From an uncultured bacterium (GTDB taxonomy: Bacteria; Patescibacteriota; Minisyncoccia; UBA6257; 2-01-FULL-56-20): 64,000 nt of DNA. The DNA is taken from contig OY970358.1 of assembly GCA_963718575.1 (NCBI GenBank), forward strand, positions 29,718-93,717, read 5' to 3'. The translations under genes and the position numbers were made by a program. A model generated the notes under the pieces. The model was not told the origin of the DNA. It was given only the letters and a program-made list of their open reading frames with translations, and ran no database searches. Shown in pieces: positions 35,007 through 58,489 of the stretch; within the stretch, counting starts at the first letter, position 1; the number at the start of each line of letters is the position of its first letter.

Positions 35007-36271
35007 GAATGATCCTCAATATCTCTTCTATAGTGGTAAGACCTTCGGATGCCTTTCGTGATCCCGTCACTGAACATCGTCACCATCCCCGCGCGCACCG
35101 CGGCGCTTTTGATGTCCTGCGCGCTCGCGCGGGCAACGATAAGCCCGCGGATTTTTTCGTCCACCTCGAGCACTTCCCGGATGCCGATGCGACCGACAAA
35201 GCCGGCGCCGTCGCATTTTTCGCAACCGACTGCAGTATAAAATGTCTTTTCCTTGAGTGCCTGGATATGTTCCAGCGCGGACGCGAATGGATTCTCCCCT
35301 TCCGAAAAGGATTCGGAGATGCTCGCGAGCTCTATCGCGGTGAGCACGGTCGGCTTCTTGCAATCCGGGCAAAGTTTTCGGACAAGGCGCTGTCCCATCG
35401 CGATGTTCACCGTCGAGGTGACGAGGAACGGCGGCACGCCCATATCGATGAGGCGCGGGAATGTCGTCGCGGCATCGTTCGTGTGGAGCGTCGAAAGCAC
35501 CAAATGTCCGGTGAGCGCCGCATTCACCGCGATGTTCGCCGTTTCTTCGTCGCGGATCTCGCCGACCATAATGATGTTCGGGTCCTGTCGGAGTATCGAA
35601 CGCAGTCCGTTCGCGAACGTGAGCCCGGTCTGCGCATCGGTCTGGATCTGTGTCGTGCCCGTGAGCGAATACTCGATCGGATCTTCGATCGTGATCACCG
35701 AGATGTCCGGCTTGTTAAGTTCCTTGAGGATCGTATAGAGCGTCGTTGTTTTCCCGGAGCCGGTGGGACCGTTGGCAAGGATCATGCCGTAGGGTTTATG
35801 GATAGCCTTCTCCACTTTTTCGAGGTCCTTCGGGTAGAAACCGAGATCGGCGAGGGAATAGGTCGAGGTCGCAACGAGCACACGCATGATGGAGTTCTCG
35901 CCGTGATACGTCGGCACGATGGAGACGCGCACGTCGAGCTCGCCCACTTCGGCGAGGCGCACGCGAAAACGGCCGTCCTGCGGCAAAAAGTGCGCATCAG
36001 TGCGCAATCCGGACATGACCTTGATGCGGCTGATCACTTCCTGGTGTAATCCGATGGATACGCGCGTCGGATCAACGACGTCGCGAAGGATACCGTCGAT
36101 TCGGAAGCGGATGCGCGAACCATCCTCGGCCGGTTCAAGGTGAACATCGGACGCTTTTGCCGCATAGGCATATTCAATAATGATATTGACAAAATCGATC
36201 ACGGAAAGTGATTCGACGGGCTTCGCAAGCAGCTCATCCATTATTGATTTCAAAGATTCCGCGTCACGCAT
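35003..36271 (-). CDS. pilB: type IV pilus assembly ATPase (GspE/PilB family)
   Basis: Walker A LANGPTGSGKTTTLYTIL, Asp/His boxes, and a C-terminal CPDC..C zinc motif. Start set at MRDAESLKS; the longer ORF upstream is antisense noise. Confidence 0.85.
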   Translation of the reverse strand: MRDAESLKSIMDELLAKPVESLSVIDFVNIIIEYAYAAKASDVHLEPAEDGSRIRFRIDGILRDVVDPTRVSIGLHQEVISRIKVMSGLRTDAHFLPQDGRFRVRLAEVGELDVRVSIVPTYHGENSIMRVLVATSTYSLADLGFYPKDLEKVEKAIHKPYGMILANGPTGSGKTTTLYTILKELNKPDISVITIEDPIEYSLTGTTQIQTDAQTGLTFANGLRSILRQDPNIIMVGEIRDEETANIAVNAALTGHLVLSTLHTNDAATTFPRLIDMGVPPFLVTSTVNIAMGQRLVRKLCPDCKKPTVLTAIELASISESFSEGENPFASALEHIQALKEKTFYTAVGCEKCDGAGFVGRIGIREVLEVDEKIRGLIVARASAQDIKSAAVRAGMVTMFSDGITKGIRRSYHYRRDIEDHS

Positions 36272-36346
36272 ATTTTTAATTGTAGCATATACCCAATCAC
36301 ACCAAAGCGGATTTTTTTTGATAGTGTACACTTGATAGATAGGCCG

Positions 36347-37348
36347 ATGAAAAAGGAAAACGAGGGAAAGGAGGATCCCATATTTAATGATATCGAAGAC
36401 GAGCCGACCCCCTATGGCGTGGGCCCGATCTCCTCTTTTTCGGAACAAGGAACCCCGGTCGTGTTCATTGCGACCATCGGGGTCGTCGTGCTTATCTTTG
36501 TGATCGCGGGAGCGTTCGTCGCCTCCTGGAATCCGGCCTTGTCGCACGCCGGCCGGCCGGAACCGGCATCATCCGGCACGGCCGCGCCTGCCGCGACGCC
36601 GGTTGTTCCGGAGATCTCCACCAGCATTCAGCACGGCAAGAACGGCACTAAGCTTTTTGTGCAATGGACAAACCTCCCCGACGGCACCACGGAGATCAAT
36701 ATATTTTATGCCGCCACGACGAATGGAACGTATCATCTGATCGGCAGCATTCCCGTGGGATCAATTGCCGACGGGAGCGGTTCCCTGACTATTTCGGCCG
36801 GAGATGCGAACGGGTCTTTCTATGGCGTTGCGTCAACGGGAAATTCTCCGGCGAACACGAATGGAACCGGCCAGGGGTCCGGGAATAATGGCGACGGGAA
36901 TACATCGTCGGGCGATGGTACCGGAAATAGCGGTAGCGGAAACGGGAATGCTACGGGCAGTGGCAATGGCGTCACACCGCCAGCGGGCAATGATAATGGA
37001 AACGGAAATGGGGATAATAACGGAAGCAGCACCCAAGGCACGGGCAATGCCAATACATCGACCGCGCCCGTCGAGAATTTTCTTGTTCAGCACTTTGATG
37101 AAAAAATACAGATAAGCTGGCAGGTGCTTCCATTAAATACATTTGAGGTGGTGGTCTCACGCTCGGCATCGGACAGTGGGCCGTGGACGCCGGTGCTTAC
37201 CGAAACGAATATTGCTTCGGACGGACCCTATTCCATTGAGGTCGTGGATGACACGCTCGGCGACCCGTATTACTACAAAATGGACACCTACGACCAAGCC
37301 GGGGATACCATCACCACCTACGGGCCGATCCTGCTCGCGCCGTTATAG
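36347..37348 (+). CDS. membrane-anchored surface protein with Gly/Asn/Ser-rich linker and C-terminal beta domain
   Basis: TM helix VVFIATIGVVVLIFVIAGAFVA, a long GNGNG/NTS low-complexity stretch, then a C-terminal ~100-aa beta-sandwich-like domain. Confidence 0.45.
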   Translation: MKKENEGKEDPIFNDIEDEPTPYGVGPISSFSEQGTPVVFIATIGVVVLIFVIAGAFVASWNPALSHAGRPEPASSGTAAPAATPVVPEISTSIQHGKNGTKLFVQWTNLPDGTTEINIFYAATTNGTYHLIGSIPVGSIADGSGSLTISAGDANGSFYGVASTGNSPANTNGTGQGSGNNGDGNTSSGDGTGNSGSGNGNATGSGNGVTPPAGNDNGNGNGDNNGSSTQGTGNANTSTAPVENFLVQHFDEKIQISWQVLPLNTFEVVVSRSASDSGPWTPVLTETNIASDGPYSIEVVDDTLGDPYYYKMDTYDQAGDTITTYGPILLAPL

Positions 37349-45666: not shown

Positions 45667-46218
45667 TTATTTTGATTTTTCTTTTAATAAATTTGCGAAT
45701 TGCTTCTGTAATTTCTCTACCTTCGGTTCGATGATGATCTGGCAATAGCCCGCGTCGGGATGATTCTTGAAATATTGCCGATGATAATCTTCCGCGTCAT
45801 AGAACTCGCCAAGCGGAACAACCTCGGTGACGATCGGTTTGCCGCCCGGATCGGACCCGGTCAGCTCCGCGATAAATTTTTCCGCCTCCGCCTCCTGCGC
45901 TGGCGTGGTATAGAATATCGCCGAACGATATTGCGTGCCGACGTCATTCCCCTGCCGGTTCAGCGTCGTCGGATCATGCGTGGCAAAAAACACTGTGAGC
46001 AAATCGTGATATGAAACCTGCGCCGGATCGTATTCGATGCGCGTCGCTTCGACATGACCGGTCGCGCCGGTACAGACCGCGTCATACGTCGGATGCGGCA
46101 CGGTGCCGCCGGTATAGCCGGGCATCACCGCAATCACGCCGCGCAATTCACTGAACACGGCTTCGGTGCACCAAAAGCATCCTCCTCCGAACACGGCCAC
46201 GGCGATTTCGTTTTCCAT
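45667..46218 (-). CDS. msrA: peptide-methionine (S)-S-oxide reductase
   Basis: GGGCFWC active-site motif. Confidence 0.9.
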   Translation of the reverse strand: MENEIAVAVFGGGCFWCTEAVFSELRGVIAVMPGYTGGTVPHPTYDAVCTGATGHVEATRIEYDPAQVSYHDLLTVFFATHDPTTLNRQGNDVGTQYRSAIFYTTPAQEAEAEKFIAELTGSDPGGKPIVTEVVPLGEFYDAEDYHRQYFKNHPDAGYCQIIIEPKVEKLQKQFANLLKEKSK

Positions 46219-46219
46219 G

Positions 46220-47413
46220 TTATCCGAAGGTAAATGTATATGCCTGCAATCCTGGCGTCTCGACCTTCAATTGCAACGTGTGTTCTCCCCCGCCATCCGC
46301 GTTATTAACAAGATTGTAGAGTTTGTTCGCTGATATGGTGATTGTGCCGTTCTGCACATCGCTTCCGGCATCGGCGGCGCTGATCGGCTGGCCATCCTGC
46401 ATCACATCAACGACGGTTCCCGTGGGCGCACCGGCGGCTACCATATAGACCTTCCCGGCATCGTATTCGTAGGTGATCGTGGCGCCGGCCGCGAGGTTCG
46501 TCGCATACTGGTCCTCAAAATCCCATGCGCCGCCGAGGTAAAGCTGATTGGGTTGGATGGTGCTCACCGACGGGGCGCTGAGCGTCTGATCGCCGTTTGT
46601 CATGACCGTTCCGTTTGCCAAAAGGCTGTTCCGCTCCGCCCCAAAATACGTCTCGGGGCTTTGGATCTCGTTGAGATTTGCCGTGGCAACATTTACCGTT
46701 CCCGTCGGGATCGTGTCGGGATCAAGCCCGAGGATCGTCGCCCGTTGCTGAAGCACGTGCTGGATCGCGGCCTCCGTATCCGGATAATTTCCTTCTCCGA
46801 CCTGATTATGCACGATATATCCGGCCATATCGATCAGATATTCGTTCGGCCAATAGAGATTGTTGTACGCATTCCACGTTCCCATATTACTGTCGAGGAT
46901 GACGGGATATTTGATGCCGTATTGCGTCACCGCATTCTGCACGTTCGCAATATTTTTTTCAAATTCGAACTCGGGAGTGTGGATGCCGACGATCACCAAC
47001 CCCGAACTCTGATATTTTTGATACCATGCGTTCAGATACGGAATCGTGCGAACGCAATTGATACAGCTGTACGTCCAAAAATCGAGCAGGACGGGTTTTT
47101 TCCCGATAAGACTCCCAAGGGTGAAGGTCGACGAAACATTGATAAAACCGGTTGGATCGACGATCTCAACGGCCGGTTCGTCGCCCGCGGCTTTATCCGC
47201 CGCGGCCAATTGTGCGAGCGCGATCTGGCTGCTGCTGCTCAGTACGACGTTGCCGCTCGACGAAGCAGTGGTACTGCTCGCGTTGCCGATGTTTATCGCC
47301 TGCGCGGGCTGGCCCGATGGTACCGAATGCACTTTTATGCTTTCCAAATACCAGATGGACCCTACTGCCACAATGACAACCGCAGCGAACGCTATCTTTT
47401 TGCTGGTGCTCAT
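46220..47413 (-). CDS. membrane-anchored thioredoxin-fold protein (TlpA/ResA-like CxxC) with extra C-terminal domain
   Basis: N-terminal TM, thioredoxin fold with WTYSCINCVRTIPYL (CxxC), then a ~200-aa C-terminal extension of unknown function. Confidence 0.6.
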   Translation of the reverse strand: MSTSKKIAFAAVVIVAVGSIWYLESIKVHSVPSGQPAQAINIGNASSTTASSSGNVVLSSSSQIALAQLAAADKAAGDEPAVEIVDPTGFINVSSTFTLGSLIGKKPVLLDFWTYSCINCVRTIPYLNAWYQKYQSSGLVIVGIHTPEFEFEKNIANVQNAVTQYGIKYPVILDSNMGTWNAYNNLYWPNEYLIDMAGYIVHNQVGEGNYPDTEAAIQHVLQQRATILGLDPDTIPTGTVNVATANLNEIQSPETYFGAERNSLLANGTVMTNGDQTLSAPSVSTIQPNQLYLGGAWDFEDQYATNLAAGATITYEYDAGKVYMVAAGAPTGTVVDVMQDGQPISAADAGSDVQNGTITISANKLYNLVNNADGGGEHTLQLKVETPGLQAYTFTFG

Positions 47414-47432
47414 AATAGTTATTATTGTATTT

Positions 47433-48182
47433 CTATATTTTAAATTTCAAGAGAAGGTCGTTTACAAAGCCGAAGTTTGCAATGAGCGGCAGGTCCTGCG
47501 TGAAGACCAATACGCCCAGAACCACAAGGATCGCGCCGAAGACCGGGTTGACGTATTCCAGCTTCGCGGCGTATTTATTGATTAAGTTTGCACTTTGTGC
47601 GACGAAGAGCCCCACAATCAGGAATGGCACGCCAAGTCCGATCGCATACGAGAGCAACAACCAGAATGCCTCGCCCGGCGCCGATGCGGCGATGCCGAGG
47701 ATCCCGCCAAGCACGGGTCCCACGCACGGCGTCCAGCCCGCCGCAAATGCAAGGCCGAACAAGAGCGACGTGAGATAGCGCGATTTTGAGTGCGTCTGGT
47801 TGGCGCCGGGGGCGAGGTTTAATTTGTGATCCATCTCAAAGAACCGAATCCGGAAGAATCCCATCAGATAGAGACCGAAGAAGATGACGATCGTGCCGCC
47901 GATCCATGCGAGCCATGATTGCACGGCGTATGCAACATGTGCGAGCGCGCCATTCAACAATACGCCAAGCAATGCGAAGACGATCGAGAAACCCAGCACA
48001 AAGAAAAAGCTGTTAAGGAAGATGCTGAGCCGCGACGGTTTCTGTGCCGCATTCGAGGACGATTCGCCCGCGAGATATGCGAGAAATCCCGGAATGATCG
48101 GCAATATGCACGGCGAAAGGAACGAAACGATGCCCGCGACAAATGCAATGAGAATCGGGATGTTGGCCATGATCGGCGTCAA
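47433..48182 (-). CDS. ccdA: cytochrome c biogenesis protein CcdA (DsbD-family thiol-disulfide transporter)
   Basis: Six TM helices and the conserved Cys pair (LSPCILP and TPCVGP). Confidence 0.8.
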   Translation of the reverse strand: MTPIMANIPILIAFVAGIVSFLSPCILPIIPGFLAYLAGESSSNAAQKPSRLSIFLNSFFFVLGFSIVFALLGVLLNGALAHVAYAVQSWLAWIGGTIVIFFGLYLMGFFRIRFFEMDHKLNLAPGANQTHSKSRYLTSLLFGLAFAAGWTPCVGPVLGGILGIAASAPGEAFWLLLSYAIGLGVPFLIVGLFVAQSANLINKYAAKLEYVNPVFGAILVVLGVLVFTQDLPLIANFGFVNDLLLKFKI

Positions 48183-48539
48183 TTATAATTTTATTTTACT
48201 ATAGATAAGCCCTCCAACCTTTGCGATGACCATGACGGTGAGCGCGATGACGAGCCACGGATCAGGGGCGTGTCCCAGCTCCCCTGCGACGATGCCAATG
48301 AGTAGAAGCGCTGAACCCGCGAGGTACGCGATCCGGTCGGCGAACAATCGATGGAACTGCTCCCGCTCATCGCCTTGATTCTCCCGCCATAAGAATATCG
48401 CAAACGCAATATAAAGGATCACCGCCCCGGTAAGCAGTCCCATCACAAGGTATCCCGGCATGAATAGGTTCCACGGATTGAAAATGATATACAGCAATAC
48501 GAGCAATCCGCATCCCACTGCCAATTCGCTTTTTGCCAT
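48183..48539 (-). CDS. hypothetical membrane protein (paired with XRE regulator)
   Basis: Four TM segments. Starts 6 nt after the HTH gene. Confidence 0.4.
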   Translation of the reverse strand: MAKSELAVGCGLLVLLYIIFNPWNLFMPGYLVMGLLTGAVILYIAFAIFLWRENQGDEREQFHRLFADRIAYLAGSALLLIGIVAGELGHAPDPWLVIALTVMVIAKVGGLIYSKIKL

Positions 48540-48544
48540 GATGG

Positions 48545-48748
48545 TTATGATAGATGAAATAATTCCTCGACCGGGCGCTTAAAGAACCTTGCAAGCCTTA
48601 GCGCAAGTAACACTGATGGCACATAGTTCCCTTTTTCTATGGCGATGATCGTCTGGCGGCTCACGCCAATTTTCTCCGAAAGTTTTTCCTGGGTGATATC
48701 CGACGCCATCCGTATCTTGTATATTTCATTTTCTACCGCCGTCTTCAT
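48545..48748 (-). CDS. XRE-family helix-turn-helix transcriptional regulator
   Basis: QEKLSEKIGVSRQTIIAIEKG, a Cro/C1-type HTH. Confidence 0.7.
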   Translation of the reverse strand: MKTAVENEIYKIRMASDITQEKLSEKIGVSRQTIIAIEKGNYVPSVLLALRLARFFKRPVEELFHLS

Positions 48749-48814
48749 GCTCTTAATTATAGTCGCCGAAGTGGTGATGTCAAGTAAACTTTACATACCG
48801 GAAGCACAACCGGC

Positions 48815-50398
48815 TTACGCCATCACCGGGATGCTCACGGTAAACGTGCTTCCTTTTCCCTCCCCTGGCGATATGGCGGTAAGCGTGCCGCCGTGCGCCT
48901 CGGCGATCTTGCGGGCAATGTACAAACCAAGGCCTGTGCCGCGGATCTCTTTTTTTACGCGCTCGTCGCGGATGAATTCTTCGAACAGGAACGGGAGGAG
49001 CGATGCGGGAATGCCGAGGCCTGAGTCGTTCACGACGACCAGCACCCGCGCGCCATCGGTCTTCAACGAGATCTTGACAAACCCGCTTGGCGTATATTTG
49101 ATGGCGTTATCGATGAGATTTTGAATGACCTGCTTGAACTTCACGCGGTCGATGTTCACAAACACCGATGCGGTGCCGATGTCCGACGCGAGTGCGAGGT
49201 TCTTTGCCTGCGCGAGCGGCATGAGCGCCGCGACGGTTTCATTCACGAGCGGGACAATATCCGTCTTTTCGAAACTATATTCCATTCTCCCTTCCTCCAC
49301 CTTACGCACGTCGAGCAGCACGTTGATGAGATCGATCAGCTCGTCCGCTGAATCTTTTACCTTGCCAAGCGTCTCCTTCACCTTATCGCTCACCTCGCCG
49401 TACGAACCATCCATGATCAGCGTGATAAACCCCTTCATCGCCGCAAGCGGCGAGCGCATCTGATGCGACGCGAGCGACAACAATTCGCTCTTGAAGCGGC
49501 CGAGATCGGCGAGCTGTTCGCGTTGCTCAACCTCGCGCTGGACGCTTTGTATAAGGAACAGGCTAAAAATCAAAACAAGTATAAATTCGCCGACCCTGAA
49601 CAATATCTGTTCCAGGTTTTGTGAAAAAATAATCTCGGAAAATGTGGTTATGGTAAGCAGGAATGCGAAGATCTCCGCCGAAATGACCTTTACGCTCAAA
49701 AGGTGGTATTTCATAATCGCATAAGTGGTGAACGCGATGAATGGGAAGAAGAAGACGGCGGCAAGCGGAATAAGCGTCACGTTTTGGAATACGATCGGCA
49801 ATACGAGGTTGAACGTTATCAAAAGGAGGAATGTGACTGCTGCGCCGACAAGAATAAAAATGAATTGTATACGCTCCAGGTCCCGCGCCCGTAGCAGTTT
49901 TTTGACCAACAAGAATAGGCCAGCGATCACAAGGCCGAATGCGGCGATCGCAAAAACAGCAATGCCGGGTCCGAGTATGGCCTGCGATACCATTCCAACC
50001 TGCCTTTGCGTCTGAAGGCCGGCAAATACCAAGGAGGTAAGCGTCAAGAGTGAAACCGCCCCAACGAGCGGGATGACGGCCCATACGTAAAATTTCGGAT
50101 AGGTCGTCGATTCCTTGGGAAATACATAAGAGAAGTGGAAGAAAGAAAACGCGTGCCAGACGGCAAAAAATATCGTTATCCGTAATGCCCAAAGAATAAA
50201 ATCAGGCGTGCTGAGCTGATAGCTGATATAATTTGCCGTACTATAGAGCACGGTAATGATGGCGAGCAATAAAAACGCCCGGGAGGTGGCACTTTTCTTG
50301 TTGTTTAAAAAAACCACGACGCCAAGGATGCAAATGGCCGCAATGGTCACTCCGACCGCGAGAAGATAGATGTTCAGGATCAATGCGGGGAATTCCAT
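48815..50398 (-). CDS. sensor histidine kinase with multi-TM N-terminal sensor domain
   Basis: Seven or so TM helices, an H-box LSLASHQMRSPL, and N/G boxes (NLIDNAIKYT, DSGLGI, GTGLGL). Confidence 0.8.
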   Translation of the reverse strand: MEFPALILNIYLLAVGVTIAAICILGVVVFLNNKKSATSRAFLLLAIITVLYSTANYISYQLSTPDFILWALRITIFFAVWHAFSFFHFSYVFPKESTTYPKFYVWAVIPLVGAVSLLTLTSLVFAGLQTQRQVGMVSQAILGPGIAVFAIAAFGLVIAGLFLLVKKLLRARDLERIQFIFILVGAAVTFLLLITFNLVLPIVFQNVTLIPLAAVFFFPFIAFTTYAIMKYHLLSVKVISAEIFAFLLTITTFSEIIFSQNLEQILFRVGEFILVLIFSLFLIQSVQREVEQREQLADLGRFKSELLSLASHQMRSPLAAMKGFITLIMDGSYGEVSDKVKETLGKVKDSADELIDLINVLLDVRKVEEGRMEYSFEKTDIVPLVNETVAALMPLAQAKNLALASDIGTASVFVNIDRVKFKQVIQNLIDNAIKYTPSGFVKISLKTDGARVLVVVNDSGLGIPASLLPFLFEEFIRDERVKKEIRGTGLGLYIARKIAEAHGGTLTAISPGEGKGSTFTVSIPVMA

Positions 50399-51466
50399 TT
50401 ATTTAAAGATCACCTCCGGGGATTTTTTTAACGACGTCGCAGTGGGCGCCTCGGCATACCCGATGCGAAACATCATCGTGATCGTCCCCTGTTCAACGGC
50501 AAAGGCAGATCGTATCCCTTCGTACGCTTTCTCTACGGCCTCTTTTTGGGATAGAGAGAATTCCTGGGCCTCATCGACATGCACGCGTTGATGAAAGAAA
50601 AGTACCCCGGTAAGGGGCTGCATGCTCATGCCGTTGCTGGTCGCAAGAAGCCAAAGTTTTTGGAGCGTACGGCCCGCGTCGATAAAATCTTCGAGTGTTT
50701 CATTGGAAACGGTAATTATCCCTATCGCAGAAGCGGATGCATAAATTTTACTGTTCTCCTTTGCTCCCATTTTCCCCGCACCAAGTGCGTTAAAAATGCG
50801 CATGATCGGCCAGTATTGAAAGAGGCGGAAAAGTGCCTTTGCCGGCGGAAGTAATTCGAGCACTTCAATATAGAATCCGGAGCGTTGTTTTAACTCTTCC
50901 TCAAGGGTCCAATGAACATGGGAAAAGAAAAAATCATGGAGCGATCGGTTCTCAAGCAGGAGCGTGTCGTTCACGCTGGCGATCGTTGCAAGTTGTTTAA
51001 TAGCCGAAGATTCCTTGAGGAATCTCACCTGGATCGCATCCATATTTTTTGCGGCACCCACGAGCGCATCAATGACGGGAGTGGGAATGGTGCCGCCGTT
51101 ATACATCTTTCTATTCGTACAGCGTTTTTCAATGTAGGGATACAACGATGCATCCTCTTTTACGCCGGAGGGTGCGAGTGAGATCGTCGCGATAAGGTCG
51201 GGCGCGTGGATTTTTGACCCGATCGCTACGGATGCCGCCAAATCGAAATGCGCGGCGGCAATGACGATATTCTCAATTACCGCACCATGGGATATATATG
51301 ATGCGCGTTGTCGAAAGTTATAAAGCGATCGGTCATTTTCTGGCACATTGAACACCGAGATGCGATCTCTTTCTACTTCAAATCGCCATGGCTGTGCATT
51401 CTCGCCGGAAGGCGCCTGCACGGCAGAGGCCAGGATTGAGCGTATTGTTTCGGAGGGGATCATCAC
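50399..51466 (-). CDS. nitroreductase-fold protein with tandem halves (Acg/SagB-like)
   Basis: N-terminal half has SILASAVQAPSGENAQPWRFEV (nitroreductase APSxxNxQPW signature). The C-terminal half repeats the fold without the motif. Confidence 0.6.
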   Translation of the reverse strand: MMIPSETIRSILASAVQAPSGENAQPWRFEVERDRISVFNVPENDRSLYNFRQRASYISHGAVIENIVIAAAHFDLAASVAIGSKIHAPDLIATISLAPSGVKEDASLYPYIEKRCTNRKMYNGGTIPTPVIDALVGAAKNMDAIQVRFLKESSAIKQLATIASVNDTLLLENRSLHDFFFSHVHWTLEEELKQRSGFYIEVLELLPPAKALFRLFQYWPIMRIFNALGAGKMGAKENSKIYASASAIGIITVSNETLEDFIDAGRTLQKLWLLATSNGMSMQPLTGVLFFHQRVHVDEAQEFSLSQKEAVEKAYEGIRSAFAVEQGTITMMFRIGYAEAPTATSLKKSPEVIFK

Positions 51467-51481
51467 TATTCAGTATATCAT

Positions 51482-52675
51482 TCACAGCCCGAATATCTTG
51501 CGAAACCCCCGCTCGGTCTTTGCCCTGCCCGCCCGGGCGCTACGGGAGTTATAGCCCGGCATCAACTGTTCGTCGAGCGATACGATCGCCCGGTCGGCGA
51601 TCACCGGCTGATCGTTCAATATCTTTCGCACGCAATACGCGACCGCGGCGCCGCTCATCATCGCCGCGCCACCAAGTTGCGGCCACGATACGATCGTCTT
51701 CCCCAATTCAAGCAATGACTGCCGCATACGCTCAGTCACGTTCTCAGGGCCGACATGCTTGGTGATCATCTTCCCAATCTCGAACTTTTTCAGATTCGCA
51801 AGGCTTTCGAATGATACCCTCCCCAATCTTCCATGGAAGAATTTTGTATTTGGATTTTTGTCGTACCGTTCAACGTCAACGACCGCGCTGTCGCCGTTAT
51901 CTGCGGCCATCACGACGGCAATCCGACGCTTCCGCGCATTCTCTCGAATGAGATATTTCATACCAAGATGATCAACCTCGTCGATGACGATATCCAGCTT
52001 TGGGCCGCCATCAAAAAAGCGCTTTATAGTATCTGGCGTAAGTCCTTCCGTAAAGATATCAACCGTGGCATAGGGATTCATCTCATAAATCTGCCGAGCG
52101 GCCATTTCCACTTTGAGCAACCCGAGGTTTTGTACGCCCGCGCGGATGCGATTGGTATTCGAGAGTGCCAGGCGGTCATGGTCCGCGAGCCGAATGTACT
52201 TTCCCCCTCCTTGCAGAACGATCGCAAGTGCCACATTCGATCCCACGCTCAAACCGGCGATGCCGATCACGGCGTTATAAAATTTTTTCTGCTCTTCCTC
52301 ATTGATAAGATAACGGTTGCGCGCAGTGCGAACGGTTTGAAATTCTGTCTCGGTGAGAATGTGCGAGATACTCGAAATCCACGGGAAATATACCCAAACC
52401 CCGTGACGCGCGATGGGCATTTTTGCCGTTATCGTCCCCAGATGCTTTTTGAACGCCGGTTCAAAGTTTGGACTTTGGACCATCGTGGGGTGCTTGATCG
52501 CGAATAATTCGCGCAACTCTTCGATATAATCATCACTCACCGAAGCGATGCGGTGTGAGTTTAAAAGACGCGATAGCGAAGACCGATCCTTTGCGTGGGT
52601 AAGGTCAAAGAAGATGGGGGTTTGGGACTGATTGAATTTCTTTGTACTCCATTTTTTCTCCAATGTTTTTTTCAT
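51482..52675 (-). CDS. ThiF/MoeB-type E1-like adenylyltransferase with ~110-aa N-terminal extension
   Basis: VIGIAGLSVGSNVALAIVLQGGGKYIRLADHDRLALSNTNR, a Rossmann nucleotide-binding loop (GxGxxG-like) with a downstream Asp. No CxxC pair is evident. Confidence 0.65.
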   Translation of the reverse strand: MKKTLEKKWSTKKFNQSQTPIFFDLTHAKDRSSLSRLLNSHRIASVSDDYIEELRELFAIKHPTMVQSPNFEPAFKKHLGTITAKMPIARHGVWVYFPWISSISHILTETEFQTVRTARNRYLINEEEQKKFYNAVIGIAGLSVGSNVALAIVLQGGGKYIRLADHDRLALSNTNRIRAGVQNLGLLKVEMAARQIYEMNPYATVDIFTEGLTPDTIKRFFDGGPKLDIVIDEVDHLGMKYLIRENARKRRIAVVMAADNGDSAVVDVERYDKNPNTKFFHGRLGRVSFESLANLKKFEIGKMITKHVGPENVTERMRQSLLELGKTIVSWPQLGGAAMMSGAAVAYCVRKILNDQPVIADRAIVSLDEQLMPGYNSRSARAGRAKTERGFRKIFGL

Positions 52676-52682
52676 GGAATAA

Positions 52683-54182
52683 TTATTTTTTATTTTCTAT
52701 ATAATGCGGTTTCAACCCTTGTTTGAAATAGTTTGCATCCTGATATGGCCATAACTTGATCACGGGGCGTACATCTTTTTTTATATGGCTGCTCATATCA
52801 AGATACTCCAAATTAATTTTACCAAGTTTCTCAATGATCCGGGTCTGGATATTGCGCGCCATTGGCGCGCTCGACCGTGCCCCCTGAGAGAGCTCTATAT
52901 TAATCTCCCAGCGCTGATCCATGCCACGGTCCAGAAATTTACGGATCACAAATTTTCCCGTCAAGAGACGCATCAATGGCTTTTCCATCAAGGCCATTTC
53001 GATATGTTCGGGATAGATATTTACTCCATGGAATTTTATGGTCTGATCGGTGCGCCCCCATAATGCAACGAATGGAAGCGGATGGGCGCGCTTTATGGGG
53101 CTTACCGGTGTGAAGCGGAATGTCTGCAAGGTCTGTCGCACCTCTTCAAATGAGCGTACCTCACCACGATCATGTAAGTTGAATTTTATAAGCGGTATCC
53201 CGCTTGCGGAGGAAAATATCAATTCGCGATCAATGGATTCAATGTATCGAAAGAAAGGGTTAAATTGAAACAACTGCGGAGGCATGACGTCACCGGTCAA
53301 TGCTGATAAAAAGGTCTGGTTTTTCTCCGCGCGTTTTTTTATTTCAATACTAAACCGGGTCTCATATCCCATGAGCAGCATCTCGGACGATCCGTAGGTA
53401 TTGAATATGCGCATCGCACCGGGCCTTATCCCCGCTCGCTCGGCGATATAGCTGCGCCATTCTTCGGTGAACCCTTCGCTGCAGAACATGAGGCCGAGGT
53501 TTTTCTTTGACCATGCCACGCCTTCGCGCACGCCCGTCTCGATCACATCTTTTATGAAGAACGGATGGCCGATGAGAACCGTCTGTTCATATTCTCCGGA
53601 AAGATTTTCGGCGGCGCGGAGCATCTCCTTTTTATTATTTCCGACACACATAATCGTCATCTTCTTGTTCTTGAACGAGGTAAGCCAGCTCGGCAGGACG
53701 GTCGCCATCCCTGATATATAGATTCCCATCGGGAAACCGATCAAAAACAGCGTAGAATGCGCATCCGCGCCAAAATACTCTTTGTAAAGGAATCTATGCA
53801 CGACTGCGGCCTCGAGATCCTGCTCGATGGAGCGAGGCCAGTACTTCGGCTCCCCGGTGGTGCCGGAACTCGTTGCGATGAGCTGTGCTCCGGAGAGGTT
53901 TCCGTCCCAGCAGCGGTCCTGGATCGGATACCGCGCGATATAATTCTTTGCATCCGTCGTCGGCACCGACGCGAAATCTTTGATCGTTTTTACGCGCGTA
54001 TGGTTGATCTTCGCCGTTTTTAAAAATGCGCGGTATGCCGGCACGCGCTCGGCAGCCGCATGAAAGAGTCCAAGGGCCTTCTTTTCCGAACGCTCCCGCA
54101 AGCGCGCTTCATTTTTTTCAACAAGCGATCGTTCGAGCATCCCGCTCGCCACATTGTTTTTAATGACGGTCGGCCTATCCAT
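52683..54182 (-). CDS. adenylate-forming enzyme of the PaaK / coenzyme F390 synthetase / LuxE-like family
   Basis: ATSSGTTGEPKYWP, a P-loop-like AMP-binding motif typical of phenylacetate-CoA ligase-type enzymes. 499 aa. Confidence 0.6.
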   Translation of the reverse strand: MDRPTVIKNNVASGMLERSLVEKNEARLRERSEKKALGLFHAAAERVPAYRAFLKTAKINHTRVKTIKDFASVPTTDAKNYIARYPIQDRCWDGNLSGAQLIATSSGTTGEPKYWPRSIEQDLEAAVVHRFLYKEYFGADAHSTLFLIGFPMGIYISGMATVLPSWLTSFKNKKMTIMCVGNNKKEMLRAAENLSGEYEQTVLIGHPFFIKDVIETGVREGVAWSKKNLGLMFCSEGFTEEWRSYIAERAGIRPGAMRIFNTYGSSEMLLMGYETRFSIEIKKRAEKNQTFLSALTGDVMPPQLFQFNPFFRYIESIDRELIFSSASGIPLIKFNLHDRGEVRSFEEVRQTLQTFRFTPVSPIKRAHPLPFVALWGRTDQTIKFHGVNIYPEHIEMALMEKPLMRLLTGKFVIRKFLDRGMDQRWEINIELSQGARSSAPMARNIQTRIIEKLGKINLEYLDMSSHIKKDVRPVIKLWPYQDANYFKQGLKPHYIENKK

Positions 54183-55794
54183 GCCATTGCATTTCCAAGA
54201 TATCGGAATGCTTTGCGTAGTGAACGATCCTCTCCAGTTCCTTTGAAGCCACGCGATCGTTCACGATCGGCGGAAATACTTTTTGCACTTCGCGTATCAT
54301 TTTTCGTGACGGCGCGGAAAAACGCGTATGATATCCTAAAAACTTTGCGAGTTGGCCGAGGGTCACAAGCTCGATCGAAAGCACGATATAGGCGTTTTCG
54401 ATCACTTCTGCCGCGACGATCGCCGCATCGGTGCCCATGCTCACAATATCCTGATTATCGGCGTTTGTCGGGATCGAATGCACGTGCTGAGGGAACGCAA
54501 GTGTCTGGCTGCGCGCCGTAGTGGAGGTCGCGACAAACTGCAATCCCTGCAATCCCATCGTGAGGCCGGGGGTTTTCAGATTAAGGAATGGCGGAAATGA
54601 ACGATTGACGGCCGCATTCAGGAAAAAGTTCACGCGGCGCTCTGAAAGCATCGTTAGCTTTACGATCCCCGCCTTAAGTTGATCGATCCCCGCTGCCATA
54701 TAATCACCGTGAAAATTTCCTCCATGAAGAAACACACCCGCCTTTGCGTCAACGACGGGGTTGTCGGTCACTGAATTGATCTCGATGTTCACTTCGCGAG
54801 TCACTTTCCGGAGGATGTCAAAGATCGGACCGATCACCTGAGGGGTGCAACGGAACGAATACACCTCCTGGACGCTTTCCGGAATGGTATGGGTCTCGCC
54901 GGTAACCGAAAACGAATCCTGAAATTTTTTTCGGTCGCGCAATAATTTTGAATTGGTCGTAAGCGAGCGCAACATTTTTGCCACCGCCTGCTGGCCATAG
55001 TGGGGGCGGAGCTCCTGAAGCCGCGCAGAAAACCCATCGGTAAAGGAATGGACCGATTCAAGTGCGCACGCGCTATTTCTGATTTCAATGCTGATCAAAC
55101 GTTCTGACTCTATGCAAAGCAGTGCGGCGATGGCCGCCATCATCGAAGTCCCGTTTATAAGAGAGAGCCCTTCTTTTGGTTTTAATGTATACGGACCGAT
55201 CGCAAGCCTTTTTAAAACAGCGCTCGTCGCCTGCCGTTTTCCTTTATAAAACACTTCGCCCTCTCCGATGACCGCGAGCGCGATATGGGCGAGTTGCACA
55301 AGATCCCCGCTCGTTCCCACGGCGCCGTGATCCGGCACGACCGGAATGATCCGTTCATTGATGAAACGCTCAAGACGCTTGAGCGGGTCGATCGAAATAC
55401 CCGAGTATCCTTTGAGTAATGTATTCAAACGCACCGTCATTGCGGCAATGACATATTCCTGAGGTAAGGGATTTCCCATTCCCATCGCGTGCCCCCGGAT
55501 CAGATTTGTCTGAAGCGCGATGACCTCGTTCCGGCCGATGATATGCGAGGCCATTGGCCCGAATCCGGTGTTGACTCCATAAATGATTTTTTTTCGCGCC
55601 GCCGATGCTAAAAATTTTTCCGTCCGTTGCACGCGTGCGATCGCCTTCGGATCGATCCTTACCTTTACCGCCGGATCATGGGCAATTGCATAGATCTCTT
55701 CTATGGATAAGCCGTTCCCGTTTAAAAGGACTGTTTTCATATTGGCATCGTTAAAGAATTGCCCGCACCCGTTTATCCAGCTCTTCCACGTCAT
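54175..55794 (-). CDS. MIO-dependent aromatic amino acid ammonia-lyase/aminomutase family protein (HutH/PAL/TAL/TAM-like)
   Basis: GAVGTSGDLVQLAHIAL, where the MIO-forming triad appears as Thr-Ser-Gly instead of the usual Ala-Ser-Gly. The full-length lyase-1 fold follows (NGTSMMAA...QDSFS...GNFHG). Confidence 0.8.
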   Translation of the reverse strand: MTWKSWINGCGQFFNDANMKTVLLNGNGLSIEEIYAIAHDPAVKVRIDPKAIARVQRTEKFLASAARKKIIYGVNTGFGPMASHIIGRNEVIALQTNLIRGHAMGMGNPLPQEYVIAAMTVRLNTLLKGYSGISIDPLKRLERFINERIIPVVPDHGAVGTSGDLVQLAHIALAVIGEGEVFYKGKRQATSAVLKRLAIGPYTLKPKEGLSLINGTSMMAAIAALLCIESERLISIEIRNSACALESVHSFTDGFSARLQELRPHYGQQAVAKMLRSLTTNSKLLRDRKKFQDSFSVTGETHTIPESVQEVYSFRCTPQVIGPIFDILRKVTREVNIEINSVTDNPVVDAKAGVFLHGGNFHGDYMAAGIDQLKAGIVKLTMLSERRVNFFLNAAVNRSFPPFLNLKTPGLTMGLQGLQFVATSTTARSQTLAFPQHVHSIPTNADNQDIVSMGTDAAIVAAEVIENAYIVLSIELVTLGQLAKFLGYHTRFSAPSRKMIREVQKVFPPIVNDRVASKELERIVHYAKHSDILEMQWHG

Positions 55795-56143
55795 CCACTT
55801 TGCTGAAAATCGGTATCCCCTTCAGCTCGCTCATTACTTTTGCCCTTTCGCTGCGAGCAAGGTCCACCATCGGATCCCGGAGGCTGGTGAAGAACGCCAG
55901 TTTGATATCCTTCGTGTTCGGATTGCTCCGTACCGCAAGGGCGAATTCCCAACCGCTCGGGCCGGGCGGCATATAGATGTCGCTCAGGATGATATCCGGC
56001 TGAAGCTCCTCGGCGCGAGCGAGCGCATCGGGAACGTTGCGGGCAATCACCACCCCGAACCCCTGCGTTTGGAGCTTTATCGAGGCAATTTCCAAAAAAA
56101 TTTCTTCGTCGTCCAAAAGGAGGACGAGCGGGCGGTCTCTCAT
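55751..56143 (-). CDS. single-domain response regulator (CheY-like receiver)
   Basis: VLLLDDEEIFLEIASIKLQ...IILSDIYMPPGPSGWEF...FFTSL. Its stop overlaps the start of the MIO-enzyme gene by 44 nt. Confidence 0.7.
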   Translation of the reverse strand: MRDRPLVLLLDDEEIFLEIASIKLQTQGFGVVIARNVPDALARAEELQPDIILSDIYMPPGPSGWEFALAVRSNPNTKDIKLAFFTSLRDPMVDLARSERAKVMSELKGIPIFSKVDDVEELDKRVRAIL

Positions 56144-56179
56144 GTAAGTAATTATACACTATTTAGGTATACTGAGACT

Positions 56180-56662
56180 ATGAAGTTGTTGCCCGAAAAG
56201 GATTATCACGAATTGTTCAGGATCGGCATTCTGGTCAAGGCGGTTGACGGGATCATTGAGGCCGTCGCCGGCGGCTTCATTTACTTTGCAAACTATACCG
56301 CTATCAACGCGGTGCTATTCTCGGTGTTTCACGAAGAGATCGCCGAGAGTCCGCATGATCTTGTGTGGGGATATCTCATTGATGAGTGGCATCGATTCCT
56401 GCTTTCAAGCCATGCTTTTTGGGGATTGCTTTTTATCGCCCATGGCGCAATAAAATTCTTCCTCTCTATCATGCTTCTTAAGGACCATCGCTGGGCATAC
56501 CCGACGACAGCAGTCGTGTTCGCGCTGTTTGCCGGATACGAACTGTATTCTGCAACCGGACACTCATCGCTATTTCTATGGCTGATAGGCATCTTTGACG
56601 CCATCGTCGTCATCCTGATCATTCATGAATATCGCCACCTAAAAAAAAGGCTATCGGAGTAG
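56180..56662 (+). CDS. DUF2127-like membrane protein
   Basis: 160 aa with four TM helices. The long upstream extension of the 6-frame ORF has no stop but also no coding signal; start taken at MKLLPEK. Confidence 0.45.
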   Translation: MKLLPEKDYHELFRIGILVKAVDGIIEAVAGGFIYFANYTAINAVLFSVFHEEIAESPHDLVWGYLIDEWHRFLLSSHAFWGLLFIAHGAIKFFLSIMLLKDHRWAYPTTAVVFALFAGYELYSATGHSSLFLWLIGIFDAIVVILIIHEYRHLKKRLSE

Positions 56663-56673
56663 CCGTTTTAATG

Positions 56674-58489
<1,816 letters not shown>

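Follow-up and report, generated by a model that had tools for sequence, protein, structure and literature searches.

The six-gene operon at positions 48,815 to 56,143 of the window, that is, of the whole 64,000-nucleotide stretch of DNA analysed here, appears to encode a variant oxazolone (azlactone) pathway with a two-component sensor of its own, a reading to which we assign a probability of roughly 0.55. An oxazolone synthetase made of a ThiF-like protein and a nitroreductase-fold (NR) protein is already known, but its combination with an MIO lyase and a PaaK-fold ligase in the place of an acyltransferase, and with a 7TM sensor histidine kinase (HK), is new. The near-constant link of these enzymes to their own membrane sensor kinase suggests a chemical signalling system in Patescibacteria. 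The operon and the promoter that follows it comprise:

55751..56143, minus strand: receiver-only (CheY-like) response regulator (RR), the first gene of the operon (Pfam Response_reg, 2.3e-09)
54175..55740, minus strand: MIO aromatic amino-acid ammonia-lyase (Lyase_aromatic, 1.7e-150)
52683..54182, minus strand: divergent PaaK-fold adenylate-forming ligase, termed PaaKL (AF2 model and Foldseek)
51482..52675, minus strand: predicted ThiF-like ATP-dependent cyclase (NCBIfam NF005901, Rv1355c family)
50399..51466, minus strand: predicted Acg-like tandem NR-fold flavin-dependent oxidase (FDO) (NF005901; Acg family)
48815..50398, minus strand: polytopic HisKA_7TM sensor HK (HisKA_7TM, 2.5e-12; HisKA; HATPase_c)
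48756..48783, minus strand: sigma-70 consensus promoter TTGACA-16-TATAAT (12/12 matches), inside the 66-nt gap between HK and an XRE regulator gene

All six open reading frames lie where the preliminary description had placed them, and the families it named are borne out by profile searches, PaaK being weak by sequence and clear by fold. The genes are tightly packed: MIO and PaaKL overlap by 8 nt, PaaKL and ThiF are separated by 7 nt, ThiF and NR by 15 nt, and the HK start codon directly abuts the NR stop codon (0 nt). The longest MIO reading frame, extending to 55,794, overlaps RR by 44 nt; because homologues begin at about residue 19, the start is more likely Met19 at 55,740, which leaves a gap of 10 nt. 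A TATAAT hexamer (56,156–56,151) lies 7 nt upstream of the RR ATG within a 36-nt divergent spacer. The promoter at 48,783–48,756 precedes a separate unit of XRE, membrane protein, DsbD, thioredoxin-like and MsrA genes, of which XRE and the membrane protein are kept only in the closest relative (L001/L007). The preliminary description had let XRE and the membrane protein follow the six packed genes; the six stand, whereas the other two, with their own promoter and such narrow conservation, fall outside the system.

The ThiF-like protein and NR together correspond to a single known family. Specifically, ThiF alone aligns with positions 5–344 of the NF005901 profile (332 bits) and NR alone with positions 373–714 (206 bits; 155 bits for the Acg family), and the two concatenated match this Rv1355c-family equivalog end to end at 543.5 bits (cutoff 476), whereas MoeB and ThiF models score far under cutoff for the ThiF-like protein. 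Its nucleotide-binding motifs (GxxGxxxG, D-x-D...SNxNR, IDxVD) align with those of TcdA and are kept in 46 homologues. In line with this, the solved structures nearest to the two proteins are the cyclodehydratase TcdA for ThiF and Acg 2YMV for NR, the latter also being named as the closest structure for TrzS (PMC12856293). TrzS, which is Rv1355c, has been shown experimentally to be a ThiF-cyclase/FDO-desaturase yielding N-acyl tryptazolone (PMC12856293), TyzB/TyzC is its unfused counterpart (PMC10404671), and OxzB is a ThiF-FDO oxazolone synthetase (de Rond et al., bioRxiv 10.1101/2020.06.11.147165). From sequence, the assignment of ThiF and NR as a putative split homologue of this synthetase (OxzB, TyzB plus TyzC, or TrzS) is well supported. 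The 110-aa N-terminal extension of ThiF, previously regarded as unusual, is indeed present but is a family trait, since the alignment to the Rv1355c profile already begins at residue 12. Likewise, the earlier proviso that ThiF and NR might turn out to be a pair with known partners applies in part: such pairs have been described, but the N-acyltransferase that canonically goes with them is absent here and replaced. The earlier notion of logic borrowed from TOMM and PYP modules is best replaced by that of a variant oxazolone pathway.

The lyase carries the MIO triad T161-S162-G163, and TSG is found in 41 of 45 cluster homologues. Its best NCBIfam match is the FlxA tyrosine ammonia-lyase (TAL) at 578 bits (cutoff 700), above the HutH models at 437 bits (cutoff 539). 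It has an invariant His102 at the selectivity switch and the motifs GFGPM and DNQDIVSMG, which match SgTAM/TAL, and it lacks the HAL-type NQEDHVSM. The earlier view that this is something other than an ordinary HutH thus holds, on the tyrosine-type motifs and the missing HAL-specific QEDH. The sequence points to an aromatic amino-acid ammonia-lyase that is probably of the tyrosine type, although with a FlxA TAL score under cutoff it could also be a PAL or an aminomutase. The slot upstream of PaaKL is taken by one of two non-homologous enzymes that deaminate amino acids, namely the MIO lyase and an ELFV dehydrogenase that best matches the Trp dehydrogenase ScyB. PaaKL clades track this partner, one having MIO in 42 of 44 cases and two others having ELFV dehydrogenase in 7 of 14 and MIO in 0.

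PaaKL itself (AF2 model, pLDDT 87.7; 872 representatives at E<=1e-30) retrieves PaaK1/2 and BT_0428 in Foldseek at E ~1e-24, followed by the CoA-independent ligases NatL2, AjiA1 and ClxA, while NCBIfam PaaK models give only 51 and 44 bits (cutoffs 700 and 646). As judged from sequence, such an enzyme could yield an amide, a CoA thioester or an adenylate alone. We propose that PaaKL is an ATP-dependent N-acyl-amino-acid (amide) synthetase replacing the OxzA/TyzA/TrzA acyltransferase, the amine acceptor being suggested by gene context.

The module is found in more than 50 Patescibacteria species, where gene order is kept and the flanking genes are unrelated. Of the 32 species-level loci with sufficient flank, 31 contain ThiF, 29 HK, 28 NR and 26 MIO, all within about 5 kb, and at 11 of the 32 an RR adjoins the cluster; NR is missing at some loci (L005, L018, L048) and ThiF is missing nearby at L017. 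Juxtaposition of these genes is far beyond chance, and the co-occurrence across 32 loci supports the preliminary proposal of a conserved functional unit under two-component control for making or modifying a small molecule. Additionally, the enzymes occur as fusion proteins, namely ELFV dehydrogenase-PaaKL-ThiF (1242 aa), PaaKL-ThiF, ThiF-PaaKL, ELFV dehydrogenase-PaaKL and, inside Patescibacteria clusters, ThiF-NR (L025, L035, L040), which indicates that the dehydrogenase, ligase, ThiF and oxidase steps belong to one pathway. In relatives, the space between NR and HK repeatedly holds candidate tailoring genes, which encode methyltransferases of two families and an O-methyltransferase.

The linkage between kinase and enzymes is reciprocal. 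When the search was seeded with the HK TM domain alone, 21 of the metagenome loci had 5 kb or more of upstream sequence, and 16 of these carried NR with PaaKL; where the enzymes occur, ThiF is also present except in L102 and L105-type cases, and on most short contigs NR lies directly upstream of HK. This kinase subfamily is thus almost exclusively found beside these enzymes, even where the flanks differ wholly, a pattern typical of synthase-receptor pairs. In its AF2 model the TM domain comprises 9 helices, with one short beta-hairpin only outside the membrane, and RR is without an output domain. On this genomic linkage we propose that HK is the receptor for the pathway product.

Taken together, these findings suggest the following route. 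The MIO lyase would convert an aromatic amino acid, with Tyr as the likeliest substrate, into an arylacrylic acid (p-coumarate) by deamination, and in sister clusters an aromatic-type amino-acid dehydrogenase would instead give a 2-oxo acid. PaaKL may then adenylate the acid and couple it to an amino acid at the amino group, forming an N-acyl amino acid with neither acyl-CoA nor an N-acyltransferase needed. The ThiF-like enzyme would adenylate the carboxylate of this N-acyl amino acid and cyclise it to a saturated oxazolone, and the Acg-like flavin oxidase would desaturate C-alpha/C-beta to a conjugated 4-arylidene-oxazol-5-one, which in some relatives may be methylated. Finally, the membrane-embedded 7TM HK would sense this hydrophobic product and signal via the receiver-only RR. 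We infer cyclisation and desaturation from the characterised homologues, and the acceptor of the ligase step, the exact substrates and the sensing step from context. Several points count against this reading: the characterised homologues need O2 for the FDO step, yet many Patescibacteria are thought to be anaerobes; some loci are missing NR or ThiF; and RR, with no output domain, adjoins the cluster at only 11 of 32 loci.

The same enzymology may serve a product that is protective or antagonistic rather than a signal, such as an antioxidant, a pigment that absorbs UV light or an electrophile that acts as an antimicrobial against host or competitors, with the kinase sensing external stress and controlling or accompanying production. 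We consider this possible, though doubtful. The tyz genes of M. tuberculosis are tied to oxidative-stress resistance and Proteobacteria oxazolones are antibiotic-induced (PMC12856293; PMC10404671); in line with such a role, DsbD, thioredoxin-like, MsrA and MsrB genes follow the operon in the window and in L001, and redoxin, glutaredoxin and thioredoxin reductase genes flank that of L005. However, the redox genes in the window are under their own promoter and are not conserved neighbours at most loci, and the kinase subfamily stays with the enzymes despite differing flanks.

It is unlikely that PaaKL is instead a conventional aryl-acid CoA ligase, so that TAL and ligase would make p-coumaroyl-CoA for an unlinked OxzA/TyzA-type acyltransferase or another acceptor. 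Its top structural matches are genuine phenylacetate-CoA ligases, JGI labels PaaKL-family members as such, and TAL plus CoA ligase is the established route to the PYP chromophore and the flexirubin starter, with weak FlxA/FlxY matches here. On the other hand, the scores of PaaKL against the PaaK equivalog models stay below 10% of their cutoffs, and no N-acyltransferase recurs within 10 kb among 54 loci, the set used for neighbourhood recurrence. The direct PaaKL-ThiF fusion in several proteins, moreover, implies that the product of PaaKL is the substrate of ThiF. Patescibacteria commonly lack CoA and fatty-acid metabolism.

Protein or peptide modification, as floated earlier for pilins, is highly improbable. 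Here ThiF would adenylate a peptide or carrier C-terminus in a RiPP/TOMM-, microcin-C- or ubiquitin-like manner, NR would oxidise and the ligase would add an aryl group, with the kinase or a pilin as target. The ThiF family classically acts on protein C-termini, McbC/SagB-type nitroreductases work in TOMMs, aaRS-like ligases and an MccF-like S66 peptidase occur in a variant cassette that has the same kinase (L105, L107), and type IV pilus genes lie elsewhere in the window. But the operon has no YcaO, precursor peptide or ThiS-like gene, as initially noted, and no intergenic room; no YcaO, beta-grasp, GG-ending or small-ORF family recurs in the 54 loci, conserved Cys residues are missing from the kinase TM domain, and ThiF plus NR belong to the Rv1355c family, which acts on small molecules.

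An even more remote, purely speculative idea is a photoreceptor with PYP/rhodopsin-like logic, in which the arylidene-oxazolone, a GFP-chromophore-like azlactone, would be the chromophore of the 7TM kinase and could acylate the invariant Lys237 after helix 7. Absorption lies at ~360 nm for tyrazolones and ~400 nm for tryptazolones, and nucleophiles easily open the ring (PMC12856293); TAL plus ligase is the PYP-chromophore logic, and the TM domain forms a 7-helix bundle, has invariant N56, R73 and K237 and gives weak GPCR-like Foldseek matches. These matches, however, are not significant (E>=7e-3, TM<=0.56), K237 lies at the cytoplasmic boundary, a common position for lysines, and MIO-less clusters would yield far less conjugated products. 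The high but sub-threshold HutH scores, and JGI labels of some ThiF homologues as molybdopterin/thiamine adenylyltransferase, might favour a last reading, in which an ordinary HutH, a cofactor enzyme of the MoeB/ThiF kind, a nitroreductase for detoxification and a two-component system with no tie to them stand together by chance. This is refuted by gene order in more than 50 species, kinase-seeded recovery of the enzymes and the fusion proteins; the lyase motifs and the MoeB/ThiF model scores also speak against it.

Compared with known systems, the operon with its proposed oxazolone-sensing kinase resembles several cassettes in part. CqsA/CqsS, LqsA/LqsS/LqsR, AgrBDCA and ComQXPA place one or more biosynthesis genes for a hydrophobic signal beside a multi-TM kinase without a large extracytoplasmic domain, plus a response regulator. 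The layout here is similar, with predicted small-molecule genes, a polytopic kinase and RR, although the chemistry is unlike that of those cassettes and ligand sensing is suggested here by gene linkage. TAL-ligase modules (TAL/pCL for PYP; FlxA/FlxY for flexirubin) likewise join an MIO TAL-like enzyme to an adenylating ligase; however, both enzymes here are under the Flx cutoffs, the ligase is of the PaaK fold rather than 4CL-type, and ThiF/FDO follow downstream instead of a PYP or polyene-PKS partner. TOMM synthetases (E1-like C, YcaO D, SagB/McbC B) share an E1-like protein, a nitroreductase-fold flavoprotein and an azole-type outcome, but they use YcaO and act on a precursor peptide, whereas the predicted substrate here is a free N-acyl amino acid and the flavoprotein is Acg/FDO-type, not SagB-type.

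The ligases of benzoxazole pathways, NatL2, AjiA1 (BomJ) and ClxA, share the PaaK fold; their substrates are aryl carboxylic acids, and without any use of CoA they pass the acyl-adenylate straight to a nucleophilic O or N (PMC7204872). PaaKL is just ~13–17% identical to them, is without the C-terminal locking extension of NatL2, is ~60–70 residues longer through internal and N-terminal insertions, and stands beside ThiF/FDO rather than the amidohydrolase of the benzoxazole pathways.

[quoted passage not shown] The acyl-CoA N-acyltransferase OxzA/TyzA/TrzA, however, is replaced by the MIO lyase (or ELFV dehydrogenase) and the PaaK-fold ligase, so that one would predict an aryl acid derived from an amino acid, and not a fatty acid, as the source of the acyl group. 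These known systems reside in Proteobacteria or Actinomycetota, and M. tuberculosis trzAS adjoins signalling genes for c-di-GMP turnover (PMC12856293); the Patescibacteria module, unlike OxzAB, TyzACB and TrzAS, includes a dedicated 7TM HK.

The six minus-strand open reading frames within 48815-56143 have the coordinates reported in the preliminary description, and Pfam and NCBIfam searches agree with the gene families it assigned to all six proteins. In transcription order, the operon encodes a receiver-only response regulator (RR; Response_reg), an MIO lyase (Lyase_aromatic, 1.7e-150), a divergent PaaK-fold adenylate-forming ligase (PaaKL), a ThiF protein, an Acg-like tandem nitroreductase-fold flavin oxidase (NR) and a sensor histidine kinase (HK; HisKA_7TM, HisKA and HATPase_c). 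All six genes are intact, and the GC content of the operon is not unusual compared with the rest of the window. The junctions comprise an 8-nt overlap between the lyase and PaaKL genes, gaps of 7 nt (PaaKL/ThiF) and 15 nt (ThiF/NR), and a 0-nt junction at which the start codon of HK abuts the stop codon of NR. The longest lyase reading frame overlaps the RR gene by 44 nt. The alignment with homologues, which begins near residue 20, makes Met19 (55740) the probable start codon; with this start, the two genes are 10 nt apart. The operon and its surroundings in the window are as follows.

33864-36547, minus strand: type IV pilus/T2SS assembly ATPase (T2SSE) and platform protein (T2SSF)
45667-48783, minus strand: co-directional unit of XRE regulator, 118-aa membrane protein, DsbD/CcdA, 397-aa thioredoxin-like protein and MsrA
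48815-56143, minus strand: six-gene operon
56180-56662, plus strand: divergent DUF2127 gene
56674-58489, minus strand: typA/bipA GTPase gene

The DUF2127 gene lies 36 nt from the RR start (spacer 56144-56179). A TATAAT hexamer at 56156-56151 (minus strand) precedes the RR ATG by 7 nt, so that a leaderless or near-leaderless transcript would be implied. At the 3' end, the operon closes with the kinase gene. Between HK and the XRE gene lie 66 nt that include a perfect sigma-70 consensus promoter (TTGACA-16-TATAAT, 48783-48756, minus strand); the XRE regulator and membrane protein, previously described as following the operon, are therefore placed together with DsbD, thioredoxin and MsrA in a separate unit. 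The 397-aa thioredoxin-like protein of this unit is membrane-anchored. L005, an otherwise unrelated homologous locus, is flanked by redox-repair genes too (redoxin, glutaredoxin and thioredoxin reductase). Single-base frameshifts at homopolymers, such as an A5 run near 57970 and a T3 run near 57666, split the typA/bipA gene into no fewer than four reading frames, and the gene of the closest relative, L001, is likewise in pieces, three in number. The cause is either a pseudogene common to both or a homopolymer error in long-read assembly. The T2SSE/T2SSF genes are typical of Patescibacteria and by position have no relation to the operon. Patescibacteria represent a large share of bacterial diversity and have genomes below 1 Mb. 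The ThiF protein is encoded on an 881,652-bp contig and the cluster of the closest relative on an 829-kb chromosome (OY970354.1). Other genes of the window, for aminoacyl-tRNA synthetases, ABC transporters and the type IV pilus ATPase and platform protein, fit such an organism.

By family membership, the ThiF/NR core is predicted to be a split oxazolone synthetase. Specifically, the ThiF protein (Pfam ThiF, 7.4e-19) has its best NCBIfam match in NF005901, "Rv1355c family protein", of which it covers the N-terminal half (profile 5-344, 332 bits); NR matches the C-terminal half of the same profile (373-714, 206 bits) and the Acg family at 155 bits. Each protein alone falls under the NF005901 cutoff, as expected because the gene is split; concatenated, they reach 543.5 bits against a curated cutoff of 476, with residues 12-747 aligned to positions 5-714 of 722. 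The same profile covers the N-terminal extension of the ThiF protein, which had been regarded as unusual and is therefore a family trait. Additionally, ThiF and NR are fused in three Patescibacteria loci (L025, L035 and L040). The MoeB/ThiS and TcdA readings of the ThiF protein score far under the cutoffs, and the standard MoeB that the preliminary description had considered is thereby rejected. The solved structure nearest to the ThiF protein is TcdA, itself an ATP-dependent cyclodehydratase. The nucleotide-binding motifs (Gly-rich loop, D-x-D...SNxNR and IDEVD) are retained and can be aligned with those of TcdA, and their conservation across 46 cluster homologues is 90% or higher. NR has Acg (2YMV) as its nearest PDB entry, which is likewise the nearest solved relative reported for TrzS. 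Rv1355c was recently characterised as TrzS, which converts N-acyl-tryptophan into N-acyl tryptazolone by ATP-dependent cyclisation followed by O2-dependent desaturation (PMC12856293). Unfused TyzB/TyzC (PMC10404671) and fused OxzB of Pseudoalteromonas rubra (bioRxiv 10.1101/2020.06.11.147165) carry out the same reactions on N-acyl-Tyr/Phe. Oxazolones do not survive treatment with acid or methanol (PMC12856293).

An acyl-CoA:amino acid N-acyltransferase of the OxzA/TyzA/TrzA type was found neither in the operon nor within 8 kb on either side in the Pfam annotation of the syntenic locus L001, and no N-acyltransferase family recurs near the clusters among 54 loci. The PaaK-fold ligase sits in the upstream position where the N-acyltransferase would be. 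An AlphaFold model of PaaKL built from 26 sequences (pLDDT 87.7) matches PaaK1 (2Y27) in Foldseek with E=3e-24 and TM 0.64/0.74; PaaK1/PaaK2 and BT_0428 are the best structural matches, followed by NatL2, AjiA1 and ClxA. These three also have the PaaK fold; they act in benzoxazole pathways and, independently of CoA, join an aryl-adenylate directly to an O or N nucleophile (PMC7204872). The ANL core motifs SSGTTGEP, YGSSE and GR(T/S)D..(I/F)...G.NIYP are invariant. PaaKL thus shares its fold and ANL adenylation motifs with PaaK, yet it fails equivalog-level sequence membership, with 44 bits against TIGR02155 (cutoff 646) and 51 bits against NF041878 (cutoff 700), matches that cover the N-terminal half only and reach less than 10% of the cutoffs. 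A GH3 amido-synthetase identity was rejected, with weak GH3 matches in 4/26 members and no GH3 among the top 50 folds. We infer that PaaKL would make the N-acyl amino acid directly, because no N-acyltransferase lies nearby, PaaKL occurs fused to ThiF, whose characterised cyclase relatives take N-acyl amino acids, and the fold offers CoA-independent precedents; this is the least secure enzymatic step.

PaaKL homologues number in the hundreds and derive nearly all from Patescibacteria MAGs; a full HMM scan returned 872 representatives (50% identity clusters) at E<=1e-30. One homologue, P0399 (619 aa), bears a 145-aa N-terminal extension without a Pfam match. In a Bryobacteraceae MAG (Acidobacteriota; L039, 8269-11344), the MIO lyase and PaaKL occur alone, without ThiF, NR or HK. 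The three latter are likewise missing from loci of Promicromonospora (L057) and Dactylosporangium (L058), in which PaaKL homologues at 32-34% identity neighbour a FAD oxidase, a hydrolase and a SARP regulator. These three loci are possible biochemical entry points through culturable hosts, the latter two being from cultured actinomycetes.

The MIO lyase (Lyase_aromatic, 502 bits in Pfam) has T161-S162-G163, N214, Y312 and R315 invariant across 45 homologues. Its best NCBIfam family is the flexirubin tyrosine ammonia-lyase FlxA (NF053541; 578 bits, cutoff 700), with HutH and the aminomutases both ranking behind. In alignment to solved structures, it carries "DNQDIVSMG" as in the tyrosine aminomutase SgTAM, in place of "NQEDHVSMG" in the histidine ammonia-lyase (HAL) 7TQR, in which the extra Glu corresponds to Glu414 of P. 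putida HAL. The ordinary HutH that the preliminary description had named as a competing possibility is rejected, since the HAL motif is absent and the score of 437 bits lies under the HutH cutoff (TIGR01225, 539). The lyase also carries "GFGPM", and its selectivity switch is Gly/Ser-His, with His in 45/45 homologues, as in SgTAM and HAL. We read the enzyme as Tyr-type from these signatures, with p-coumarate as its putative product; it may instead be a PAL or a mutase. Genes for O-methyltransferases (O-MT) and other SAM methyltransferases fit a phenolic product that undergoes tailoring.

Neighbourhoods of three homologues and 57 species-representative loci were mapped by tblastn with the window proteins. 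The order MIO-PaaKL-ThiF-NR-HK recurs with unrelated flanks, and in Magasanikbacteria it is ThiF-MIO-PaaKL-NR-HK. Of the non-redundant loci, 32 have sufficient flanking sequence; 31 of them carry ThiF, 29 HK, 28 NR, 26 MIO and 11 an RR. The module occurs in Paceibacteria/Parcubacteria and in Doudna-, Kaiser-, Lloyd-, Magasanik- and related groups, and full-text literature searches returned no description of the cluster in Patescibacteria. Other recurrent neighbours are housekeeping genes (DnaK, DnaJ, TyrRS) and methyltransferases only. A TyrRS gene lies within 10 kb of the cluster, on either side, in 12 of about 54 loci (e.g. L051-L053, L056, L028, L031, L038 and L042), which may be conserved synteny or a weak hint of a tyrosine link.

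Clusters without the MIO gene often hold in its position a gene of about 360 aa for a Glu/Leu/Phe/Val-dehydrogenase family protein (ELFV-DH); in NCBIfam, this protein scores highest, though under the cutoff, against the tryptophan dehydrogenase ScyB (285 bits). Such loci are L054, L060, L063, L071/72, L075/76, L079/80 and L092, with remnants in L083 and L086. Therefore, two unrelated amino-acid-deaminating enzymes alternate upstream of the ligase; their common property is the conversion of an amino acid into a carboxylic acid by deamination. PaaKL clades follow the partner: one clade has MIO beside 42/44 members, and two others have ELFV-DH beside 7/14 and MIO beside none. Fusion proteins from other metagenomes combine ELFV-DH-PaaKL-ThiF (P0285, 1242 aa), PaaKL-ThiF (P0295), ThiF-PaaKL (P0308) and ELFV-DH-PaaKL (P0369). 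Together with the ThiF-oxidase fusions, these chain all four predicted catalytic steps in sequence, from deaminase via ligase and cyclase to oxidase. At least three SAM methyltransferase families accompany the clusters, including an O-MT in L047 (3818-4855), a class I methyltransferase between or adjoining NR and HK (L010, L015, L016, L038, L040, L094, L100 and L103) and a Methyltransf_33-like protein in the same position (L009, L024, L042, L084, L087, L091, L105, L107 and L112); they are probably tailoring enzymes for the product. Directly after ThiF, L022 (12788-13738) and L019 (9416-10360) have a gene for a radical SAM/SPASM-domain protein whose C-terminal tail is rich in Cys and Pro, and L022 has a second PaaKL-ThiF pair. 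A class IV aminotransferase beside L065 is probably housekeeping, because it passes the IlvE cutoff and is divergently oriented.

HK scores above the Pfam cutoffs for the 7TM domain (PF16927, 47.6 bits), HisKA (42.4) and HATPase_c (93). An AlphaFold model of residues 1-295 (9 sequences, pLDDT 78.7) has nine helices and, as its sole extramembrane part, a short beta-hairpin (125-142). The conserved polar residues N56, R73, H82 and K237 lie within or at the ends of helices, and no Cys is conserved. Foldseek against the PDB retrieved no solved bacterial sensor domain resembling the transmembrane (TM) domain; the non-significant matches are all eukaryotic GPCRs (best E=6.7e-3, TM<=0.56), a likeness that we take as generic seven-helix similarity and not as evidence.

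With the TM domain as query, a word-indexed search for homologues returned 8 matches, too few to describe its distribution. In a reciprocal test, metagenome contigs were searched with patterns of the TM domain only (6 closer sequences), and the enzymes were then mapped. In 21 distinct loci, 5 kb or more of sequence precedes HK. PaaKL and NR are present in 16 of these, nearly all of which have ThiF too, with the enzymes directly upstream of HK; on short contigs, NR is immediately upstream of HK in most. Three of the 21 (L070, L105 and L107) are variants with NR only, or with NR and aminoacyl-tRNA synthetase (aaRS)-like ligases, an S66 peptidase and a methyltransferase, and two (L088 and L095) lack the enzymes. 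This subfamily of kinases is therefore essentially reserved for the biosynthetic module. Two of the variant loci carry a cassette with the same kinase subfamily, PaaKL and ThiF being absent in view.

L105, 709-7783: variant cassette
L107, 2-7126: variant cassette

The gene order in both is NR, a 377-aa protein without a Pfam match, an LD-carboxypeptidase/MccF-like S66 peptidase, tRNA-synt_2 (a stand-alone class II aaRS catalytic-domain paralogue), a Methyltransf_33-like protein and the 7TM HK, an arrangement that points to another amino-acid-ligating front end serving the same sensor. The constant core is oxidase plus kinase, and the front end varies.

In the best-supported mechanism as a whole, an amino acid would be converted into a deaminated acid by the lyase or the dehydrogenase; the PaaK-fold ligase would turn this acid into an N-acyl amino acid at the expense of ATP; ThiF, also with ATP, would cyclise the latter to an oxazolone; the flavin-dependent oxidase (FDO), NR, would convert the oxazolone into a 4-arylidene-oxazolone with FMN and O2; and the adjacent kinase would sense the product or a methylated derivative within the membrane. 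For the putative ThiF and FDO steps, the basis is that the proteins belong to a characterised family; for the proposed deamination and ligation, it is context, fusions and structural analogy, and for the proposed sensing, genomic linkage and analogy with the CqsA/CqsS, Lqs and Agr cassettes. Patescibacteria are often considered anaerobic, while the FDO step is O2-dependent in characterised homologues.

We tentatively propose a Patescibacteria-wide chemical communication, cell-cell or symbiont-host, in which a CoA-independent line of lyase, ligase, cyclase and oxidase would turn aromatic amino acids into an aryl-acyl arylidene-oxazolone "autoinducer" and a dedicated GPCR-like 7TM kinase would perceive it; we consider this doubtful as it stands, with a probability of roughly 0.3. 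A more extreme version, in which the electrophilic, coloured azlactone is a covalent ligand or chromophore of the kinase, is a speculative extension. On the other hand, a protective-metabolite role instead of signalling is a serious alternative: redox-repair genes adjoin the operon in two contexts, and tyz of M. tuberculosis has oxidative-stress links.

The proposed mechanism is directly testable, because all its components, soluble enzymes and a single kinase, lend themselves to heterologous expression. One conserved pathway and its own sensor take up about 7 kb of a genome of roughly 0.88 Mb, in a group considered nearly devoid of secondary metabolism and of known signalling chemistry. Oxazolone natural products are so far known to us from Proteobacteria and Actinomycetota only, with fatty-acyl groups. 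If the mechanism is right, oxazolones would reach a new phylum-level group and, with aryl-acyl groups, a new chemical class; a new CoA-independent route to N-acyl amino acids would run via a PaaK-fold ligase; mostly uncultivated episymbionts would gain their first testable candidate small-molecule signal/receptor pair; and a hint at the physiological function of oxazolones in M. tuberculosis might follow.

Compared with known systems, the module corresponds neither to TOMM/azole RiPP pathways nor to a PYP-type chromophore module, a judgement already made in the preliminary description and upheld here by negative feature tests for both. As it had also noted, YcaO and a precursor peptide are lacking: the operon and the recurrent neighbour families contain no YcaO and no conserved small ORF. 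A PYP module combines a 4CL-type p-coumaroyl ligase with a Cys-bearing acceptor, whereas here the ligase is PaaK-fold, a PAS/PYP gene is absent and the kinase TM domain, without a conserved Cys, provides no such acceptor. With the oxazolone synthetase systems, the operon shares the core ThiF/FDO but not the adjacent N-acyltransferase, and its lyase, ligase and kinase are additions, none of which has been reported with oxazolone synthetases so far. In its proposed way of working, it would compare with the cassettes of an autoinducer synthase and a polytopic kinase, in which the kinase binds the product of the neighbouring synthase; what the operon shows of this is a reciprocal genomic linkage of kinase and enzymes.
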